The notes under the pieces: model-generated
Seen by the model: the letters and a program-made list of their open reading frames with translations, nothing else
Told to the model about the DNA's origin: nothing
Databases searched by the model: none
In this document: piece by piece, positions 5,154-64,000 of the stretch
Layout: each line of letters opens with the position of its first letter
Numbering within the stretch: the first letter of the stretch is position 1
Program-made: the position numbers and the translations under genes
DNA from: a virus
Length of the DNA stretch: 64,000 nucleotides
Direction: 5' to 3' (one strand)
Virus record (IMG/VR): IMGVR_UViG_3300032898_000001
Span: 31,532-95,531 of that record

Positions 5154-5380
5154 ACGCCAAGAAAAAGAAGCCATTCGACGTCAAGAAGGCGAACAAGGAC
5201 GCCGCGAAGGCGACCCGCCAGTTTCGACGTCGCGCCCGGCTGAACCACCAGAACCCGCTCAGCGGAAAGCCGACGCGCCCGGCCAAGAAGCAGGGCTGCC
5301 TGTCCATATCTGCGGTCCTCGTCCTGAGTGCCGGCGGGGCGGTGACCGGGATCGTCCTGGCAGCGAGGGGACTGGCGTGA
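5150..5380 (+). CDS. Basic micro-protein with GC motif and C-terminal TM helix, copy 4
   Basis: ..NHQNPLSG..KKQGCLSISAVLVLSAGGAVTGIVLAARGLA; ATGA overlap. Confidence 0.8.
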   Translation: MNAKKKKPFDVKKANKDAAKATRQFRRRARLNHQNPLSGKPTRPAKKQGCLSISAVLVLSAGGAVTGIVLAARGLA

Positions 5381-5541
5381 CCTTCGACACCGGCCCGAGG
5401 GCCGGGACCCGCATCCGCCAGCCGCGGAAGCGCAACGACAAGACCGGCAACATCCGACGGAAGGGCTGCGCGCTCACCGCTCTCGCCTTCGTGGCGGGAG
5501 CGGTGGGGGCCGCGGTCGCGATCAAGACGGGAGTGAGCTAG
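5377..5541 (+). CDS. Basic micro-protein with GC motif and C-terminal TM helix, copy 5
   Basis: ..RRKGCALTALAFVAGAVGAAVAIKTGVS; GTGA overlap. Confidence 0.8.
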   Translation: MTFDTGPRAGTRIRQPRKRNDKTGNIRRKGCALTALAFVAGAVGAAVAIKTGVS

Positions 5542-5545
5542 AGAC

Positions 5546-5776
5546 GTGGACAGCCCAGATGGTTTCCGCCGCAAGGACCCGAAGGGATACGCCCGCGGCA
5601 GGGAACTCAGTCGACAAATCAACCAGAAGCGCTCGAGTAGCTACCGGGTCACGAACATCAAGAAGGCCAAGGACAACCGCAGCGCGCCGGGCTGCGCCGT
5701 GATCGCTCTCTGCGTCGGCGTCGGCCTGCCGGGCGCGATCATCGGGACCGTGCTCGTGGCGAGGGGCCTAGCGTGA
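5546..5776 (+). CDS. Basic micro-protein with GC motif and C-terminal TM helix, copy 6
   Basis: ..APGCAVIALCVGVGLPGAIIGTVLVARGLA. Confidence 0.8.
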   Translation: MDSPDGFRRKDPKGYARGRELSRQINQKRSSSYRVTNIKKAKDNRSAPGCAVIALCVGVGLPGAIIGTVLVARGLA

Positions 5777-5997
5777 GCAACCGCTCACGGCGGCGCAAGA
5801 TCCGGAAGGCCCAGCGAGAGTTCCGGGAGACGGGCCGGCGCTACGGCGGGGAGACCGTCTATCCGGCGGGAGCCCGTGAGGCCAAGAACAGGAAGATCCA
5901 GGACGCGATGAGCGGCCGGCGAAAGGGCTGCGTCGTCTCGGCCATCTGGCTGAGCGCCGCGGTGATCGGCGCGATCGCGACCGTGAAGGGAAGCTGA
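5773..5997 (+). CDS. Basic micro-protein with GC motif and C-terminal TM helix, copy 7
   Basis: ..RRKGCVVSAIWLSAAVIGAIATVKGS; GTGA overlap. Confidence 0.8.
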   Translation: MSNRSRRRKIRKAQREFRETGRRYGGETVYPAGAREAKNRKIQDAMSGRRKGCVVSAIWLSAAVIGAIATVKGS

Positions 5998-23136: not shown

Positions 23137-23176
23137 AAAAAGTGGGGCCGCCCTCCCCGAAGAAGAGCGGCCCCAC
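23137..23176 (-). terminator. Intrinsic terminator closing the tRNA/ncRNA operon
   Basis: GTGGGGCCGC..GCGGCCCCAC then TTTTT on minus strand. Confidence 0.8.
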
Positions 23177-23351
23177 GCCGGCGTGCCCTTTCTAGTCGCG
23201 GTGACACGCCGTTTATCCCGGCTAACCGCTAAGGACGGCGTCGCCATCGGGCTCACCCCGGCGATGGCCACCTCGCGTGACCGGGGGTCTTGCCTAAACG
23301 AGACGGGCGGGCTCAAACACCCGCGGCACCCCGTCGGGTCCGTCTCGTTTT

Positions 23352-23424
23352 GTGCGCTGGCCCGACTCGAACGGGCCGGCAACCTTCTCGGTCCGGTGCA
23401 CCGGCCGATCTCGCGCAGCGCTCC
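23352..23424 (-). ncRNA. tRNA-like element (acceptor-like stem and T arm, no canonical D or anticodon arm)
   Basis: GCGCTG..GCCCG-TTCGAGT-CGGGC-CAGCGC-A. Confidence 0.55.
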
Positions 23425-23494
23425 ATCTTTCTAGGACGGTGCTCGATTCAAGCCGTGCCCTGATTATCGACACGGCTAACCGAGTAGAGCGTCG

Positions 23495-23565
23495 CACCTG
23501 GTCGAGGGATCGAACCTCGTTCTGCGCTTTTGGAGAGCGCCGTGCTGCCACTGCACCAACCAGGC
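23495..23565 (-). tRNA. tRNA-Trp(CCA)
   Basis: Cloverleaf; GCGCT-CTCCAAA-AGCGC; TTCGATC T loop. Confidence 0.9.
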
Positions 23566-23684
23566 CCGACCGATCGCTCCCACGTAAACCGGGACGCCGT
23601 GTACCAGGGGCCAGGCCCCCGGCATCGCGCTCGCCTCCCGGACCATCTTCTCCATACCCCATCCCGGCGGTGGTCCGAGCGCGA

Positions 23685-23822
23685 TCAGTCGTCTGTCTCT
23701 CGAGGCTCATCGCAGTCGACGCAAGAGTCGAACCGCTCGCTGTCGATGTTGAACCGGTGCCCGTGCACCTCACACGCGGTCCACTCCGAGAAGTCGATCT
23801 CGTCTCGTTCCTGGGTCTCCAC
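23685..23822 (-). CDS. Small acidic Cys/His protein inside the tRNA cluster
   Basis: GGAGG RBS; METQERDEIDFSEWTACEVHGH..CVDC. Confidence 0.55.
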   Translation of the reverse strand: METQERDEIDFSEWTACEVHGHRFNIDSERFDSCVDCDEPRETDD

Positions 23823-23978
23823 GTTTTGCCTCCTCTCTACGAACCGCGACGAGCCCGAACCAAACCACGTCTCGTCTCGAGGCACCCTGCAACGAATGTC
23901 GCGTTGGGCCGTCCCACCAGGAGGCCGTTCCTCGTCCTCCACGGCATGAGACTGGTCTCGCCGTGCCTCTTCCCTACG

Positions 23979-24049
23979 AGCCGTACCGGGGAATCGAACC
24001 CCGTCCCGCTGGTTGGAAGCCAGATATGCAGCCACTACACCAGTACGGC
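23979..24049 (-). tRNA. tRNA-Gly(TCC)
   Basis: GCCGTAC/GTACGGC acceptor, CTGG-CTTCCAA-CCAG, U discriminator. Confidence 0.88.
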
Positions 24050-24154
24050 ACACGGGACGGTTTCTACCTCCGACGCCTCGGCGTGCATACCCCCATCGAG
24101 CTCGTTACCGATCCCGAACGGTCTAGCTCCGACGTACGTCCCTCGGACCTCACG

Positions 24155-24225
24155 TGCCCCACGCCGGGATCGAACCGGCGACCACTGGATGAAAGCCAGC
24201 GATGTTGCCACTACACCAGTGGGGC
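24155..24225 (-). tRNA. tRNA-Glu(TTC)
   Basis: GCCCCAC/GTGGGGC acceptor; GCTGG-CTTTCAT-CCAGT. Confidence 0.85.
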
Positions 24226-24227
24226 GA

Positions 24228-24338
24228 GAAGAGGGTGACGGGAGTCGAACCCGCCCAGCGGACCGTCGTCCTTTTGGCGTACGCCGTCAGCCCTGACGCT
24301 CCGGGAGTCGAACCCGGATACTGCCGGTTACCCTCTTC
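24228..24338 (-). ncRNA. Double-T-loop structured RNA
   Basis: Closing stem GAAGAGGGT/ACCCTCTTC enclosing two TTCGACT hairpins and three small hairpins. Confidence 0.6.
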
Positions 24339-24340
24339 AG

Positions 24341-24412
24341 CTGACCCGGGAGGACTCGAACCTCCAACCACCTGGTTAACAGCCAGGAGCTCTGCCGTTG
24401 AGCTACGGATCA
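24341..24412 (-). tRNA. tRNA-Asn(GTT)
   Basis: Canonical cloverleaf; CCTGG-CTGTTAA-CCAGG. Confidence 0.93.
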
Positions 24413-24416
24413 TTGC

Positions 24417-24548
24417 GTGGGCCTCTGCCGCTGAGGTACCGATCGTGATCGTTCTCACCGTACCCGGTCTTCCGCCACGCGGTCCTTCGGGTCGTGCTCG
24501 AGCGACCTGCCAAACGATCGAGAGGGACTCGAACCCTCGTCTTCCCAC
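24417..24548 (-). ncRNA. Circularly permuted tRNA-like RNA with a large insertion in the acceptor stem
   Basis: Order GTGGG, T arm (GAGGG-TTCGAGT-CCCTC), TCGATCGT..insert..ACGATCGG, TA, D arm (CCTC-AGCGGCA-GAGG), CCCAC. Confidence 0.6.
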
Positions 24549-24550
24549 CG

Positions 24551-24622
24551 CGCCATCGACGGGAGTCGAACCCGCTGCCACCTGGCTGACAACCAGGCAC
24601 TCTACCGTTGAGTTACGACGGC
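24551..24622 (-). tRNA. tRNA-Asp(GTC)
   Basis: Canonical cloverleaf; CCTGG-TTGTCAG-CCAGG; G discriminator. Confidence 0.92.
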
Positions 24623-24627
24623 CTAGC

Positions 24628-24695
24628 ACGGTAGGGCTGCAACCCGCTGGGGAATCGAACCCCACCCTACCGCTGACGACCGTGGCCACGGTCGT
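24628..24695 (-). ncRNA. Small T-loop-containing structured element
   Basis: GCGGTAGGG/CCCTACCGT stem enclosing TGGGG-TTCGATT-CCCCA; preceded by perfect hairpin CGACCGT/ACGGTCG. Confidence 0.5.
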
Positions 24696-24698
24696 TTG

Positions 24699-24770
24699 TA
24701 CCCCACGCGGGGATCGAACCCGCGTCTCCTGGCTGAGAACCAGGTGTGACTGCCACTGCACCAGTGGGGC
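24699..24770 (-). tRNA. tRNA-Glu(CTC)
   Basis: CCTGG-TTCTCAG-CCAGG; body paralogous to tRNA-Glu(TTC). Confidence 0.85.
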
Positions 24771-24774
24771 TTTC

Positions 24775-24865
24775 CCGAGGGCCTAGCACCTGCGAGGGCT
24801 CGAACCTCCCACCGGTTACCAGCCGGTCGCTCCTGCGCCGGGTGTCGAACCCGGTAGGTCCTCGG
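24775..24865 (-). ncRNA. Double-T-loop structured RNA with an anticodon-like arm
   Basis: Closing CCGAGG-A-CCTA/TAGG-CCTCGG; CCGGG-TTCGACA-CCCGG; ACCGG-CTGGTAA-CCGGT; GAGG-TTCGAGC-CCTC. Confidence 0.6.
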
Positions 24866-24908: not shown

Positions 24909-24939
24909 ACTATACCAGCCGCGGGGCAGCTTGTAAACA
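24909..24939 (-). promoter_or_regulatory. Promoter of the tRNA/ncRNA operon, TGTTTACA family
   Basis: TGTTTACA-N17-TATAGT with extended -10 TG. Confidence 0.75.
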
Positions 24940-30318: not shown

Positions 30319-31242
30319 TCACGACCGCTCCCGCAGCTCGGTCAAGGTGCGGGCCAGGTTCGCGATCTCGACCTGGGTCTCGAGCTTCCCGACCCAGCGC
30401 CACGGCCAGGCGCTGGCGCCCCAGCGGACCCCGAGCAGGCCGCCCGCGATCGCGCCGGTGGTGTCGGCGTCGTGGCCGCGGTTGACGAGCTGGACGAGGG
30501 TGTCCTCGGCGGGCTGGTCCTGCTGCAGGGCCCAGATCGCGCACTTCAGGGAGTCGATCACGTAGCCGTGGGTGTTGAGCTTCGTGATCTTCAGGTCGGG
30601 AGAGACCTGCAGGGCCTCCCGCACCTCGGGGTGCAGGTTCAGCGGGTCGTGCAGGACCCGGTTCAGTGCCGCCTTCACGGTCAGGCCCTCGATCAGCCAG
30701 GCCGCGACCTCGTTGTAGGCGAGGCAGGCGGTGGTGCAGCGCGAGTCGTAGTGGGTGACCGCGCTGATGTCGAGGGACTGGGCCTCCCGGTTCCAGCGGT
30801 CTCGCACCGCCAGGGCGGTGGGCAGGCAGCGCATCAGGGAGCCGTTGCCCGCGGAGCCCGGATCCTTCAGACTGGCGTTGCGGCCGCTCGTGACCGGGTC
30901 CCCGGTCCGCGCGAGCTCGGTCAGGGCCCGCTTCGTGAGGCCGCCCACGTCGTGCGGGTTGCCGGCGGCCCAGCGCAGGAAGTTGTTGGCTACCCGGTCG
31001 AGGGAGTATCCCGCGGCGTAGGCCCGGGCGACGGCCAGGGTCAGGTCGGTGTCGTCGGTCGGCTCCCCGCGCCGCCACTTCAGGATGCCGCCGCCGACGA
31101 TCTCGCGGTGCACGCCGTACCGGGCCTGGATGGAGATGGGATTCAGGAACTCGGTGGTGGCTCCCAGGGCGTCGCCGACGGCGACCCCCAGGAGCCCGCC
31201 GAGAACGCGGTCGTGGGTGGTGAGAGTGGTGATGGTGCGCAC
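30319..31242 (-). CDS. ADP-ribosylglycohydrolase (DraG/ARH family)
   Basis: [41 protein letters not shown]. Confidence 0.95.
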
Positions 31243-31704
31243 GGTGCTTCCTTCCTGTTCCGGGTCAGATCGTCTCAACGCCCGTGATGATCACGGAGCT
31301 GTGAGTGAACGTGGGCTGGGCGGGAGCCGGGTTCGCGGCACCGGAGATCAAGGCCAGGGCGAGTCCCGCCGCGACGAGGCCGAGGGCGCTCACGCCGAGG
31401 CCCCACCTCGCGTCGCCGCGGTAGTAGGTGACGGGGCCCGCGACCATCGCGATCGCGCCCACGATCAGGTCGAACCAGAGGGCCTGGCTCATCGGGTCGC
31501 CTCCGCCCACGCGACGTCGAAGGCGTGGTTGGCCAGGCTCTCGGCCTCGGTCTCGCTCCGGCGAGTGACGGCGACGGTGACCTCGATGCCGCTGGGCGTG
31601 GTGGCGGAGACCGTGACCCGGTAGTGGCGGTTGATGATGCCGATCGGCTGGGTCTCGATGCGAGCCTGCATGGTAACTCCCTGGTCCGTTTTGCTGTTAG
31701 GACA

Positions 31705-41655: not shown

Positions 41656-41733
41656 CCCGTCCGGTGCGAGGCACCGCCGCTACTTCTTCACAAAAAGTCT
41701 ACGCGGCTACCGCCACCTTTGACCTCGGACGGG
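41656..41733 (+). ncRNA. Y-RNA-like 1 (short, no tRNA-like domain)
   Basis: CCCGTCCG-GTGCG ... GACCT-CGGACGGG closing stem; TACTTC loop. Confidence 0.7.
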
Positions 41734-41761
41734 TTCGCTGGTACCTTGATAACTACAGACT

Positions 41762-41864
41762 TCTCTCCGGTGCGACGTCGGTCGTTCCTTCTCTTGCCAG
41801 CGGGGTCACTCCCGCAACGGGGACCTAAGAGACCCCACCGACCGGCAGCGAGACCTCGGAGAGA
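41762..41864 (+). ncRNA. Y-RNA-like 2
   Basis: TCTCTCCG-GTGCG ... GACCT-CGGAGAGA; two internal hairpins. Confidence 0.7.
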
Positions 41865-41872
41865 GCACTACT

Positions 41873-42003
41873 TCTCTCTGGTGCGCTGCTCGGCCGTTAC
41901 TTCTGCAAAGAAATCTGAGTTCGAATCTCAGTGACCGGCTAGCCCCGGTCATTAGCCCAAACTGGTATGGGCATCTCGGCTGACAACCCTGATCTCAGAG
42001 AGA
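41873..42003 (+). ncRNA. Y-RNA-like 3 (YrlA type, permuted tRNA domain)
   Basis: TCTCTCTG-GTGCG..GATCT-CAGAGAGA; T arm CTGAG-TTCGAAT-CTCAG, closed acceptor TGACCGG/CCGGTCA, D arm GCCC..GGGC. Confidence 0.85.
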
Positions 42004-42010
42004 CAGATCT

Positions 42011-42137
42011 TCTCTTCGGTGCGACGTGATCACATACTTCGCTGACCAAAAGATCTACCCCAGCGGGAGAGGTTCGACTCCTCTTCAGATCCACAGGCGG
42101 ACGGCCGCCGCGTGATTGCAGCGAGACCTCGAAGAGA
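42011..42137 (+). ncRNA. Y-RNA-like 4 (T arm only)
   Basis: TCTCTTCG-GTGCG..GACCT-CGAAGAGA; AGAGG-TTCGACT-CCTCT. Confidence 0.75.
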
Positions 42138-42144
42138 TCTAAGC

Positions 42145-42292
42145 GTTCTTCTCGGTGCGTAGCTACGAGATACTTCATGAGGAACTGAGGGTTACGGGTT
42201 CGAGTCCCGGACTCCCGATCTAACGGGAGGTAGCTCAATTGGTAGAGCATCAGTATAGCAAGCCTCGTTGCGACCCTGATCTCGAGAAGAAC
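42145..42292 (+). ncRNA. Y-RNA-like 5 (YrlA type)
   Basis: GTTCTTCTCG-GTGCG..GATCT-CGAGAAGAAC; T arm, CTCCCG/CGGGAG, TAGCTCAATTGGTAGAGC D arm. Confidence 0.88.
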
Positions 42293-42296
42293 ACCC

Positions 42297-42368
42297 GCCC
42301 CTGTAGCTCAGCGGGAGAGCGGCTGTCTTACAAGCAGCTGGTCGGTGGTTCGAATCCATCTGGGGGCA
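42297..42368 (+). tRNA. tRNA-Val(TAC)
   Basis: Cloverleaf; GCTGT-CTTACAA-GCAGC; A discriminator. Confidence 0.9.
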
Positions 42369-42369
42369 C

Positions 42370-42515
42370 GGATGCCTCGGTGCGCAGTTGAGACGTTCTT
42401 CGTCTGATAAACGAGTGGTCGTGGGTTCGAATCCCATCGTGGTCCGGGTACCGGATCGCGTAGCTCAACGGTAGAGCACTATGTCCGTCTTGACGACCTC
42501 GATCTCGAGGCATCC
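42370..42515 (+). ncRNA. Y-RNA-like 6 (YrlA type, retains an Ile(GAT)-like anticodon arm)
   Basis: GGATGCCTCG-GTGCG..GATCT-CGAGGCATCC; TCGT-CTGATAA-ACGA, T arm, closed acceptor, D arm. Confidence 0.88.
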
Positions 42516-42529
42516 TCGGTAAGAGCGCC

Positions 42530-42605
42530 AACCCGGTGCGACGACCACGGCCGTTACTTCCTTGTGGTGGATTCCAACACGGTCAGGTCACTTAGATCTC
42601 GGGTT
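42530..42605 (+). ncRNA. Y-RNA-like 7 (short)
   Basis: AACCCG-GTGCG..GATCT-CGGGTT; TACTTC loop. Confidence 0.7.
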
Positions 42606-42621
42606 CTGCGCTCTTACGTGA

Positions 42622-42738: not shown

Positions 42739-44409
42739 ATGGCGGGATTCAACCGCGGCACGGTCAAGGCGACGGGGCGCGGGCCCCTCGCGACCGCGCC
42801 GACCCCGACGGGAACCACCCACGAGGGCGGCCCGGGCTACCAGCGCGACGCGAAGAGCGAGCTCTTTCTGCGTGCGACCACAATGTTCGTGGGCGAGAAG
42901 GCCTTCTACGAGTCCGCGAACGAGGGGGCGAACCGGCTGCGGGTCCTCGTGGCCGAGATCGTGAAGACCGACGAGGGCTGGGAGTGGCTGAAGGGCTTCC
43001 TGCCCTGGCTGCGGTCCGAGGCCAACATCCGCACCGCGGGCATCCTGCTCTCGGTGGAGGCGGTGCACGCCCGGCTGGCCTACGGCCTGCACGGGAACGG
43101 TAACCGGGAGCTCATCTCGCGGGTCCTGCAGCGCGCCGATGAGCCGGGTGAGGTCCTGGCTTACTGGACGTCCCGGTACGGCAAGGCGATCCCGAAGCCG
43201 ATCAAGCGAGGCGTCGCCGACGCAGCCACGCGGCTCTACTCGGAGCGCGGTTTCCTGCGATACGACAGCGACGCCAAGTCCTTCCGGTTCGGGGACGTTC
43301 TGGAACTGACCCACCCGGAGACCGACAAGGTGTGGCAGAAGGACCTGTTCAGCTGGGCGATCACGTCCCGGCAGGAGCGAGAGGGTGCCGAGCCGGCCGA
43401 GACGCTCGAGGCCGTTCGCCTGCGACGTGAACTGTCCCGACTTCCCGCCGAGCGCCGGCACGAGATCGCTCGCGGGGCCCTGGCTGGGGAAGGAACCGCT
43501 CGGAACGACATCGAGCGCGCCGCGGCCGGCCAGTGGGAGTGGGTCATCAGCTGGCTGGGGGACAAGCCCACTAGCGGCAAGGGCCTCACCAAGGCCGAGC
43601 AGTGGCAGCTCATCCTGCCGTCCCTCGGCTACATGGCCCTGATCCGCAACCTGCGGAACCTGGACCAGGCCGAGCTGGACGACGTGACCGCGGGCGGCCT
43701 CGCGACCCGGATCGCGAACCCGGAGCACGTCGCCACGTCGCGGCAGCTTCCGTTCCGGTTCTACTCGGCGTACAAGGAAGCCCCGTCCCTGCGGTGGAGC
43801 CACGCCCTGGACCGGGCCATGAGCCTGTCCCTGCAGAACGTGCCCGAGCTCACGGGCCGGTCCCTGATCCTCATCGACACCTCGGGATCCATGGAGATAC
43901 CGATGTCGAACCGGAGCGACCGGACCCGGGTGGAGGCCGCGGCGATCTTCGGCCTGGCATTGGCCCTGAAGAACCCGGAGAGCGTGGACGTATACGGCTT
44001 CGCGTCCGGAGAGTTCAAGGTCACCGGCGTGGACCGCGGCCTGAGCCTGCTCAAGGCCGTGGAGGCGTTCATCAGCCAGGTGGGCCGAGTCGGTCACGGC
44101 ACGGACATCCACGGGGCGGTGCAGCGTCAGTTCGTGGCAGGTCGCCACGACCGCGTGTTCATCTTCACGGACATGCAGACCGTGGGGACTTCGGGGTACG
44201 GTTACCGGAACAACACCATCGCCGAGCTCGTCCCGGCGAGCGTCCCGGTGTACGGTTTCAATCTGGCCGGCTACCAGCACTCGGCGATGCCGGTCGGGGA
44301 GGGCAACCGCCACGAGCTCGGTGGTCTCGGTGACGGCACGTTCTCGTTGATCCCGCAGCTCGAGGCCGGGACCACCGCGCGGTGGCCGTGGGAGACCACC
44401 GACGAGTGA
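42739..44409 (+). CDS. Ro60-like TROVE + vWA RNA-binding protein (Rsr homologue)
   Basis: THEGGPGY..KSELF, LQRADEPGE, KPIKRGVADA, DVLELTHP, MALIRNLRNL, SRQLPFRF, vWA MIDAS IDTSGSM, FTDMQ. Confidence 0.95.
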   Translation: MAGFNRGTVKATGRGPLATAPTPTGTTHEGGPGYQRDAKSELFLRATTMFVGEKAFYESANEGANRLRVLVAEIVKTDEGWEWLKGFLPWLRSEANIRTAGILLSVEAVHARLAYGLHGNGNRELISRVLQRADEPGEVLAYWTSRYGKAIPKPIKRGVADAATRLYSERGFLRYDSDAKSFRFGDVLELTHPETDKVWQKDLFSWAITSRQEREGAEPAETLEAVRLRRELSRLPAERRHEIARGALAGEGTARNDIERAAAGQWEWVISWLGDKPTSGKGLTKAEQWQLILPSLGYMALIRNLRNLDQAELDDVTAGGLATRIANPEHVATSRQLPFRFYSAYKEAPSLRWSHALDRAMSLSLQNVPELTGRSLILIDTSGSMEIPMSNRSDRTRVEAAAIFGLALALKNPESVDVYGFASGEFKVTGVDRGLSLLKAVEAFISQVGRVGHGTDIHGAVQRQFVAGRHDRVFIFTDMQTVGTSGYGYRNNTIAELVPASVPVYGFNLAGYQHSAMPVGEGNRHELGGLGDGTFSLIPQLEAGTTARWPWETTDE

Positions 44410-63237: not shown

Positions 63238-63721
63238 GTGGCCGCACTTCTCGAGGCGATGGAGCAGGCCGCTCCCGCCGCCAACCCGGACGCGGCTCAG
63301 GCCGACCTGGTCGGCGTGGCCCAGCGCTACTCCACCACCGGTGACGCCATCAAGGCGTCCATGGCGACCCTGGTCAAGGGCGCCGGCATGGCCAAGATCG
63401 GCGGCAACACGCCGCTGAGCAACGAGCGCGACATCACCGTTCGCGCCCACCAGGCCACGCTCGACCTCCGTACCTCCACCTACCAGGGCATCAACGACCG
63501 CCAGTCGGTCGTCAAGTCCATGAACTCCGGCTTCCTGAACCAGTTCGGGAACCTCAAGACCGCCCTCACCACCCCGTCCCTGGGAGAGCAGCTCTCCCAG
63601 CTCGTCGGGATGCTTCCCGGTGGTACCGAGGCCCTGAAGTCGTTCACCGCCGGCAACCTGGGAATTGGCTCGGTCTACGGCCTGGTGCCGTTCGACCTGC
63701 TCGCACCTTCTCGTCTGATCT
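63238..63721 (+). CDS. Major capsid protein, exon 1
   Basis: Follows protease/scaffold with AAGGA RBS; GLVPFDLLAPSRLI, then the frame is broken exactly where intron motifs start. Confidence 0.8.
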
Positions 63722-64000
63722 GAATTTGGGGACGGATCCTCGTTCGGTAACGAACGTGTAAAACTCCGAGAATTGCTGGAACGTCCTGCTAGACCTCAGC
63801 ACCACAACGTGGGGTGAAAACCCGAGCGTGATGGTTTGAAAAGATTGAGGGTAGGGAAAATCAGCAGCCGAGCCCGCCTGATTCGTTCGACGGGAAGGTT
63901 CAGAGACTATGTACGGAGCTCCTCAAATGAGGATGAAGATATAGTCCGATCTGCATGGAAATATGCAGAACTGAGCAGAAATGTCTCAGTCCATCGTATT
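63722..64000 (+). mobile_element. Group I intron (3' end outside window)
   Basis: P AATTGCTGGAA, Q AATCAGCAG, R GTTCAGAGACTA, S AAGATATAGTCC; P1 GATCT/GGATC with U.G; P3 CTCCG/CGGAG; P7 GACTA/TAGTC; P8 and P9 hairpins. Confidence 0.95.

Follow-up and report, generated by a model that had tools for sequence, protein, structure and literature searches.

Phage transfer RNA (tRNA) arrays are usually annotated as tRNAs and spacers. In phage T4, the stable RNAs C and D (species 1 and 2) are small non-tRNA RNAs that are co-transcribed with tRNAs and released by tRNA enzymes, and to our knowledge a layout with two T-arms is not known for them. The YrlA RNAs mimic tRNA and are substrates of tRNA enzymes, which modify and cut them; in M. 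smegmatis YrlA undergoes RNase P cleavage and CCA addition, and the YrlB RNA of the same organism also carries a T-arm (PMC4201824). The stretch of DNA analyzed here, called the window, comprises 64,000 nucleotides (nt), bases 31532-95531 of the 95.5-kilobase (kb) IMG/VR virus record IMGVR_UViG_3300032898_000001, a phage of soil or wetland, which has direct terminal repeats and a G+C content of about 66%. Within a tRNA operon on its minus strand there are two RNA elements, named A and B in this work, in each of which one closing stem surrounds two T-arms and small hairpins.

The original prediction had proposed two independent double-T-loop RNAs with a selected fold at 24228-24338 and 24775-24865, and both elements were confirmed at these positions on the minus strand. 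We consider it likely that A and B are structured RNAs that are expressed and under selection. Their architecture goes beyond chance, both belong to a tRNA transcription unit, and both are kept in a related phage; the proposal of a selected fold is borne out to that extent. Judged from the sequence, A and B are built from duplicated tRNA parts. Our preferred reading, to which we assign a probability of roughly 0.55, is that they are non-decoding, tRNA-derived mimics that would be released by tRNA processing and would bind proteins that read the T-arm or the tRNA elbow, a function that we infer. The parts of element A are listed below (RNA position p = 24339 - x, where x is the position in the window; lengths of helices in base pairs, bp).

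24228-24338, minus strand: element A, a 111-nt two-T-arm RNA between tRNA-Asn and tRNA-Glu(UUC), from sequence and folds
24330-24338 with 24228-24236, minus strand: closing stem of nine perfect pairs, p1-9/p103-111 (pair probability 0.91-1.0)
24323-24327 with 24255-24259, minus strand: inner stem of 5 bp in the predicted fold, p12-16/p80-84
24301-24317, minus strand: T-arm 1, CCGGG-UUCGACU-CCCGG, p22-38, within the inner stem (probability ~1.0)
24260-24298, minus strand: three small hairpins in the predicted fold, CGUCA-GGGC-UGACG, GGC-GUAC-GCC and GGAC-GACG-GUCC
24238-24254, minus strand: T-arm 2 in the predicted fold, GCGGG-UUCGACU-CCCGU, p85-101

The described fold of A is also its minimum free energy (MFE) structure (-52.5 kcal/mol, z = -2.7; 2 of 200 shuffles fold equally well), and almost every helix in it has pair probabilities of 0.7-1.0. 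T-arm 2 is separated by one nt from the 3' strand of the closing stem, which is the layout of an acceptor/T-arm minihelix. The inner module consists of a 5-nt linker, T-arm 1 and then the hairpins, without a D-arm of the tRNA type with a GG loop, and A contains no candidate anticodon loop. T-arm 2 and the base after it make up 18 nt that recur without change in the T-arm of tRNA-Asp (24558-24575), and the two T-arms of A have 14 nt in common; in the related phage, A directly follows tRNA-Asp. The sequences of A and B do differ, as had been claimed, but the term "independent" is too strong since their T-arms are tRNA-derived.

Element B is the first RNA of the operon and has the following parts (p = 24866 - x).

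24775-24865, minus strand: element B, a 91-nt two-T-arm RNA, from sequence, folds and conservation
24855-24865 with 24775-24785, minus strand: closing stem with 10 of 11 pairs and an A7xC85 mismatch, p1-11/p81-91 (pair probability 0.69-1.0)
24838-24854, minus strand: T-arm 1, CCGGG-UUCGACA-CCCGG, p12-28, abutting the 5' strand of the closing stem (pair probability 0.86-0.89)
24828-24837, minus strand: small hairpin CGC-AGGA-GCG, from a two-sequence alifold
24811-24827, minus strand: variable arm ACCGG-CUGGUAA-CCGGU, p39-55, from the sequence and the related phage
24793-24809, minus strand: T-arm 2, GGAGG-UUCGAGC-CCUCG, p57-73, four pairs and a GxG mismatch in the sequence

T-arm 2 of B resembles the T-arm of tRNA-Asn, is followed by the 7-nt linker CAGGUGC and is identical in the related phage, as is the closing stem. 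The GG-bearing loop of the small hairpin may act like a miniature D-loop. The variable arm had been read as a Thr(GGT) anticodon arm, and in this phage its 5-bp/7-nt form is indeed present and identical to that of the anticodon loop of tRNA-Thr(GGU). In the related phage the loop has 8 nt, UUUGGUAG, in which only UGGUA is kept; an 8-nt loop is not a legal anticodon loop, and the anticodon-arm reading is thereby weakened, as it is by the failure of any tool to score B as a tRNA. UGGUA is also the G18-G19-U20-A21 core of D-loops, and the YrlA-like units of this phage have such a core in their D-arms. Because length is variable in D-loops but fixed in anticodon loops, the arm is not taken as evidence of a decoding tRNA; we read it as a putative fast-evolving specificity loop or a D-loop-like partner of a T-loop.

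It is nonetheless worth asking whether B could be an unusual but functional tRNA-Thr(GGU) with a T-arm-like hairpin in the place of the D-arm, aminoacylated and used in translation. Such a tRNA would account for the perfect 5-bp stem of the arm and for its 7-nt loop with U33 and A37 correctly placed, and ARAGORN finds no other tRNA-Thr in the phage. On the other hand, B gives no match to ARAGORN (normal, intron or mitochondrial modes) or to the Rfam tRNA model, the 7+5 geometry of the acceptor and T stems is broken both by its closing stem of 11 bp and by the 7 nt that link T-arm 2 to the 3' closing strand, and its first pair is C1-G91. The identity of a substrate of threonyl-tRNA synthetase requires G1-C72. 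Nor does B have a conserved anticodon loop of 7 nt with U33 and a purine at 37, the loop being 8 nt in the relative. We regard a decoding role for B as highly improbable.

The setting of the two elements is a run of six tRNAs on the minus strand (23494-24770; found by ARAGORN, Rfam tRNA scores of 52-68 bits), preceded by a promoter-like site and closed by a terminator-like hairpin.

24909-24937, minus strand: sigma70-like promoter TTTACA-17-TATAGT with an extended -10 TG (10 of 12 matches, 0.1 expected)
24698-24770, minus strand: tRNA-Glu-CUC (ARAGORN, Rfam)
24550-24622, minus strand: tRNA-Asp (ARAGORN, Rfam)
24340-24412, minus strand: tRNA-Asn (ARAGORN, Rfam)
24154-24225, minus strand: tRNA-Glu-UUC (ARAGORN, Rfam)
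23978-24049, minus strand: tRNA-Gly (ARAGORN, Rfam)
23494-23565, minus strand: tRNA-Trp (ARAGORN, Rfam)
23142-23176, minus strand: intrinsic terminator-like strong hairpin and T run at the end of the operon, from the sequence

A and B fill two of the inter-tRNA gaps exactly, at 1-4 nt from the neighboring tRNAs. B is the first RNA after the promoter-like site, which lies about 37 nt upstream of it, and its 3' end is 4 nt before tRNA-Glu(CUC); A starts 2 nt past the discriminator of tRNA-Asn and ends 2 nt before tRNA-Glu(UUC). The two elements are among at least five non-tRNA RNAs with T-arms in the operon, about half of whose units are non-tRNA RNAs of tRNA size. Since plus-strand folds score equally well, the strand was set by the orientation of the T-loops, the tRNAs and the promoter.

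The T-arm motif GGTTCGANNCC occurs 21 times in the 95.5-kb genome versus 0 times in the reversed control, with 12 copies in the tRNA operon cluster and 5 in a second RNA cluster; the 12 operon motifs are divided equally between tRNAs (6) and non-tRNA elements (6). Among random genomic segments matched to each element in length, 0.19% have a terminal helix as good as that of A and 0.40% one as good as that of B. All four arms in A and B have a 5-bp stem and a UUCRANN loop, the arm at 24793-24809 with one mismatch. As to known classes, neither A nor B matches the Rfam tRNA model even at E<=10, and ARAGORN reports nothing for them in its standard, intron and mitochondrial modes, and only implausible overlapping calls at -ps80. 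No transfer-messenger RNA (tmRNA) was found in them by ARAGORN -m; the Rfam tmRNA matches are confined to the T-loop (15-17 nt, about 13 bits), and beyond such 15-17 nt T-loop matches A and B match no Rfam family at E<=10.

The gene just upstream of the operon encodes a protein of 174 amino acids with two homologues (74-76% identity), one of them on a 5518-nt soil metagenome contig, and the same run holds part of the operon. The aligned parts of this relative are tRNA-Gly with its spacer, A (24230-24339), tRNA-Asp, and a stretch of tRNA-Glu(CUC), B, the leader and the gene. The relative is without 24340-24549, a clean 210-nt block made up of tRNA-Asn and a neighboring permuted tRNA-like module, and has other sequence in place of 24628-24697 and 24179-24229. 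Gains and losses at exact unit borders indicate that units are exchanged there, and A and B were retained. Both promoter hexamers are identical in the relative, whose changes at 24921 and 24924 fall in the spacer.

The five substitutions and one insertion of B are all within the 17-nt variable arm, and the other 74 nt are identical; the list of changes is read as complete, as the table covers places up to 24945 and a 128-nt contig from a second run has exactly the same B changes over 24698-24821. The probability that five of five substitutions would fall within 17 of 91 nt is about 2e-4. Two of the substitutions (24827 and 24811) turn the pair A39-U55 into G-C and are thus compensatory, one (24826) turns C40-G54 into U.G, and the remaining two (24816 and 24822), with the insertion, change the loop from CUGGUAA to that of the relative. 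The helices recovered by the two-sequence alifold of B are those of the closing stem, T-arm 1, the small hairpin and the variable arm. In A there are 9 substitutions and no gap; the readable ones are p41 (C to U, wobble kept), p46, p58 and p60, which are in loops, and G37 to C. Divergence amounts to 8.2% in A, 6.6% in B, about 8% in the leader, about 10.6% in the spacer at 24050-24153 and about 22% in the adjacent gene. The argument from conservation is based on the location of the changes in this one relative and not on the overall rate.

The comparison with the relative also bears on whether A and B might be non-functional debris of tRNA duplication and recombination, their T-arms being recent copies and their closing stems leftover acceptor stems. 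Such an origin would fit the 18-nt identity of T-arm 2 of A to the tRNA-Asp T-arm, the 14 nt shared by the T-arms of A, the likeness of T-arm 2 of B to that of tRNA-Asn, the gain and loss of units between the relatives, and the overall divergence of A and B, which is similar to that of spacers. It fits poorly with perfect 9-bp and 10/11-bp terminal helices that frame the inter-tRNA gaps exactly, with 74 nt of B without change where about 7 changes would be expected at a spacer-like rate, with the compensatory change of A-U to G-C in B, with the lack of insertions or deletions in A, and with the keeping of both A and B in a relative whose neighboring units were lost or replaced. We therefore judge debris to be unlikely and continue with the reading of A and B as tRNA-derived mimics.

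As such mimics, A and B would be transcribed from one strong promoter along with the six tRNAs and released by the host tRNA-processing machinery, RNase P cleavage at the 5' end of the next tRNA, with 3' trimming, presumably defining the 3' ends of A and B. The closing stem and its adjacent T-arm, which are similar to an acceptor/T-arm minihelix, could direct cleavage at the 5' ends of the elements themselves. The GG-bearing loops (AGGA, GGGC, CUGGUAA and the linker CAGGUGC) could cap the T-loops, the part played in tRNA by the D-loop, and each RNA would then present two tRNA "elbows" with no usable anticodon or acceptor geometry. In this form A and B might bind, titrate or recruit proteins that recognize the T-arm or the elbow; candidate partners are host nucleases that attack tRNA, enzymes that modify T-loops, and whatever factor binds Y RNAs at their tRNA-like domain.

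A different use of the same parts can be envisaged, in which the two T-loops of each RNA dock mutually and form a platform that binds the elbows of real tRNAs, so that A and B would be tRNA binders and not mimics. Interdigitated double T-loop platforms (at the distal end of T-box Stem I, in RNase P and in the 23S L1 stalk) are readers of the tRNA elbow, and each of our RNAs does have two canonical T-loop sequences held by one closing stem. None of the known interdigitated T-loops consists of two full T-arm hairpins, however, and the GG-bearing loops next to each T-arm are suited to serve as ordinary D-loop-like caps. Mutual docking thus appears very unlikely, and we keep to the mimic as the preferred interpretation.

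A number of results weigh against that interpretation. The folding check supports A, whose described fold is the MFE structure, but not B, whose two-T-arm fold (-38.0 kcal/mol) is about 7 kcal/mol above the MFE (-45.2 kcal/mol). The MFE structure of B pairs the variable arm with T-arm 2, and in the two-T-arm fold the pair probabilities of these two arms are <=0.02; T-arm 2 has, in addition, its GxG mismatch. The non-MFE fold of B is a genuine caveat because all six real tRNAs of the operon are predicted as cloverleaves. In the relative, the two-T-arm fold of B is again -38.0 kcal/mol, and the rival MFE structure goes from -45.2 to -38.1 kcal/mol, a loss of 7 kcal/mol, which speaks for the two-T-arm fold. 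The G37 to C change in A breaks a pair of T-arm 1 unless it is compensated, and 5 of the 9 A substitutions are readable, the comparison of A listing changes more than 30 nt from piece ends and the partner of G37 and the other 4 changes lying within that distance. Overall, A and B are no better conserved than the leader or the 24050-24153 spacer, and the comparative support comes from one relative. Homologues of A and B were not found in IMG/VR, JGI metagenomes and GTDB genomes (exact-core scans) or in INPHARED, a search for RNA runs containing this stretch gave none, and RtcB and a CCA-adding enzyme were not found in the phage genome.

Megablast and blastn against the 50,697 phage records of INPHARED returned nothing, or tRNA-Asn only; searches for the locus anchored on the 174-amino-acid protein returned nothing from IMG/VR and metagenomes, and one anchored on Ro60 returned a single distant contig, which is devoid of T-arms. 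A full-text literature search turned up no account of phage RNAs with two T-arms.

The phage does encode a Ro60-like protein, and its gene lies beside an array of Y-RNA-like units. A second RNA cluster (41664-42621, plus strand), 18 kb from the operon, includes tRNA-Val and tRNA-Met and, interleaved with them, at least five units with the Ro-type signature GUGCG-N(4-30)-UACUUC (5 hits versus 0.5 expected, all in 41664-42560 on the plus strand). Three of these units fold as permuted tRNA mimics of the YrlA type, two of them with sub-threshold Rfam YrlA scores (31-35 bits versus 69). Directly downstream is a gene for a Ro60-like protein with TROVE and VWA domains (42739-44409, plus strand); the closest cultured phages with such a protein (37-41% identity) are Gordonia and Streptomyces phages. 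In the Gordonia phage Rabbitrun (NC_060133), the region 5300-5840 upstream of the Ro-like gp95 contains four orphan T-arms and four GAUGCG...UACUUC units, and one of its YrlA-like RNAs has a second T-arm within a 68-nt insert. The Rabbitrun units overlap annotated "hypothetical proteins" gp93 and gp94 and are probably unannotated Y-like RNAs; genes for an RNA ligase and a nucleotidyl transferase are nearby.

Given this second cluster, A and B could be viewed as additional Y RNAs, or detached effector modules of Y RNAs, that work with the phage Ro60. The TROVE/Ro60 gene has five or more Y-like units as neighbors, and tRNA modules of the YrlA type are present in some of them; a long 5'/3' closing stem is also found in Y RNAs; the Ro-adjacent YrlA-like RNA of Rabbitrun has two T-arms, and M. 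smegmatis YrlB has one (PMC4201824). A and B, in contrast, are not adjacent to the Ro60 gene but about 18 kb away on the opposite strand, and the YrlA model (RF02553) gives them at most 16.3 bits (E=5) versus the threshold of 69, in a best overlapping match that spans the 3' half of A and the next tRNA. The Ro-type signature is present in all five second-cluster hits and in four hits of Rabbitrun, and is absent from the tRNA operon cluster that holds A and B. It is accordingly doubtful, and quite unlikely on our reckoning, that A and B are Y RNAs, and the reading as tRNA-derived mimics is retained.

Further tRNA-like RNAs were observed in the operon itself. A permuted tRNA-like module at 24413-24549 (minus strand), without a Ro-type signature, has a GUGGG/CCCAC stem, a 5-nt linker, a T-arm, a long acceptor-like arm with an insert, the D-arm CCUC-AGCGGCA-GAGG and the other strand of the stem, which fits the permuted YrlA order of T-arm, acceptor-like hairpin and D-arm in a closing stem. 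A 44-nt T-arm minihelix at 24629-24672 (minus strand), preceded by a hairpin at 24675-24694, has a closing stem of 8-9 bp with the T-arm abutting the 5' strand, a mirror topology like that of T-arm 1 of B; the relative has 151 nt of other sequence in this spacer. The 3' end of the operon (23180-23493, minus strand) consists of about 310 nt of non-coding sequence, partly conserved in related contigs, and carries the orphan T-arm GCCCG-UUCGAGU-CGGGC at 23360-23376.

With regard to other viruses, two T-arm motifs at most 75 nt apart occur in more than 120 IMG/VR contigs among the matches listed. In many of these the first arm is that of a normal tRNA, and in about 59 contigs, again among the matches listed, neither arm belongs to a tRNA. 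Several of the latter, of unrelated base composition, have a layout like that of A, with a closing stem, an internal T-arm and a second T-arm abutting the 3' strand (IMG/VR loci L047, L090, L039, L015, L007, L029 and L122). The comparison is by layout, not by homology or covariation, and what these examples show is recurrence of the layout only. The double-T-arm element of locus L120 has no match in cultured phages. A separate and very large phage family of tRNA-like RNAs of 90-118 nt was also seen in more than 120 contigs among the matches listed (IMG/VR L125-L200 and others, with four copies in L129). Its members have a fixed acceptor stem (UAGUCARG / CYUGACUA), a D-arm of the tRNA-Leu type, a T-arm and a hypervariable middle of 45-70 nt, and only some of them are called as tRNA; the family looks like a conserved tRNA handle with a variable cargo.

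It is possible, although we hold it to be a speculative extension, that A and B belong to a widespread and unrecognized phage class of "multi-elbow" RNAs in which a tRNA-processing handle, made of the closing stem and a T-arm, is joined to additional T-arm and GG-loop modules that act as decoys or sponges, or as double-T-loop platforms that hold tRNAs. The factors decoyed by such RNAs may include tRNA-targeting defense nucleases, and the fast-evolving arm of B may be a specificity element.

As for the remaining features of the window, the neighboring open reading frames (ORFs) have no Pfam or PHROG match. A 45-codon ORF between tRNA-Gly and tRNA-Trp (23685-23822, minus strand) has a GAGGAGG ribosome-binding site and CxxH...CxxC spacing. 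An intact ADP-ribosylglycohydrolase gene (30319-31278, minus strand; Pfam PF03747, E = 1e-62) is in the leftward gene block that also holds the tRNA operon, and toward the right end of the window there is a full-length match to an Rfam group I intron (63707-63968, plus strand; 69 bits, E = 2e-15).

Should A and B prove to be functional mimics, phages would be deploying several kinds of tRNA look-alikes, which would bear on why phages carry tRNA clusters and on the binding partner of the tRNA-like domain in Y RNAs. Cultured relatives with this biology (the Gordonia phages Rabbitrun and Trax, and Streptomyces phages with Ro-like proteins) make the idea testable at the bench.

Among the known systems, the T4 RNAs C and D are likened to A and B from their description only and belong to a different phage group. 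The YrlA RNAs (RF02553), found in Ro60-encoding bacteria and actinophages, share with A and B the tRNA parts (T-arm and small stem-loops), the long closing stem, the non-decoding character and the presence of Ro60 in the phage; A and B differ in having no tRNA-type D-arm and no Ro-binding signature, in scoring at most about 16 bits, and in their location within a tRNA operon 18 kb from Ro60. With tRNA and the acceptor-T minihelix, A and B share UUCGANN T-loops on 5-bp stems and, in A, a T-arm 2 that abuts the 3' closing strand; unlike tRNA, their closing stems are 9 and 11 bp instead of 7, the D-arm is missing, A is without an anticodon arm, and the T-arm that adjoins the closing stem in B is on the 5' side, a mirror topology. 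The interdigitated double T-loop resembles A and B in bringing two T-loop motifs into one compact RNA domain, but the known examples are formed from bulges and apical loops that are docked, whereas A and B have complete T-arm hairpins of the tRNA type. Non-coding phage RNAs that resemble tRNA are thus known, and what appears new here, as judged from the full-text literature search, is the two-T-arm layout without a D-arm, located in a tRNA operon and belonging to no Rfam family.

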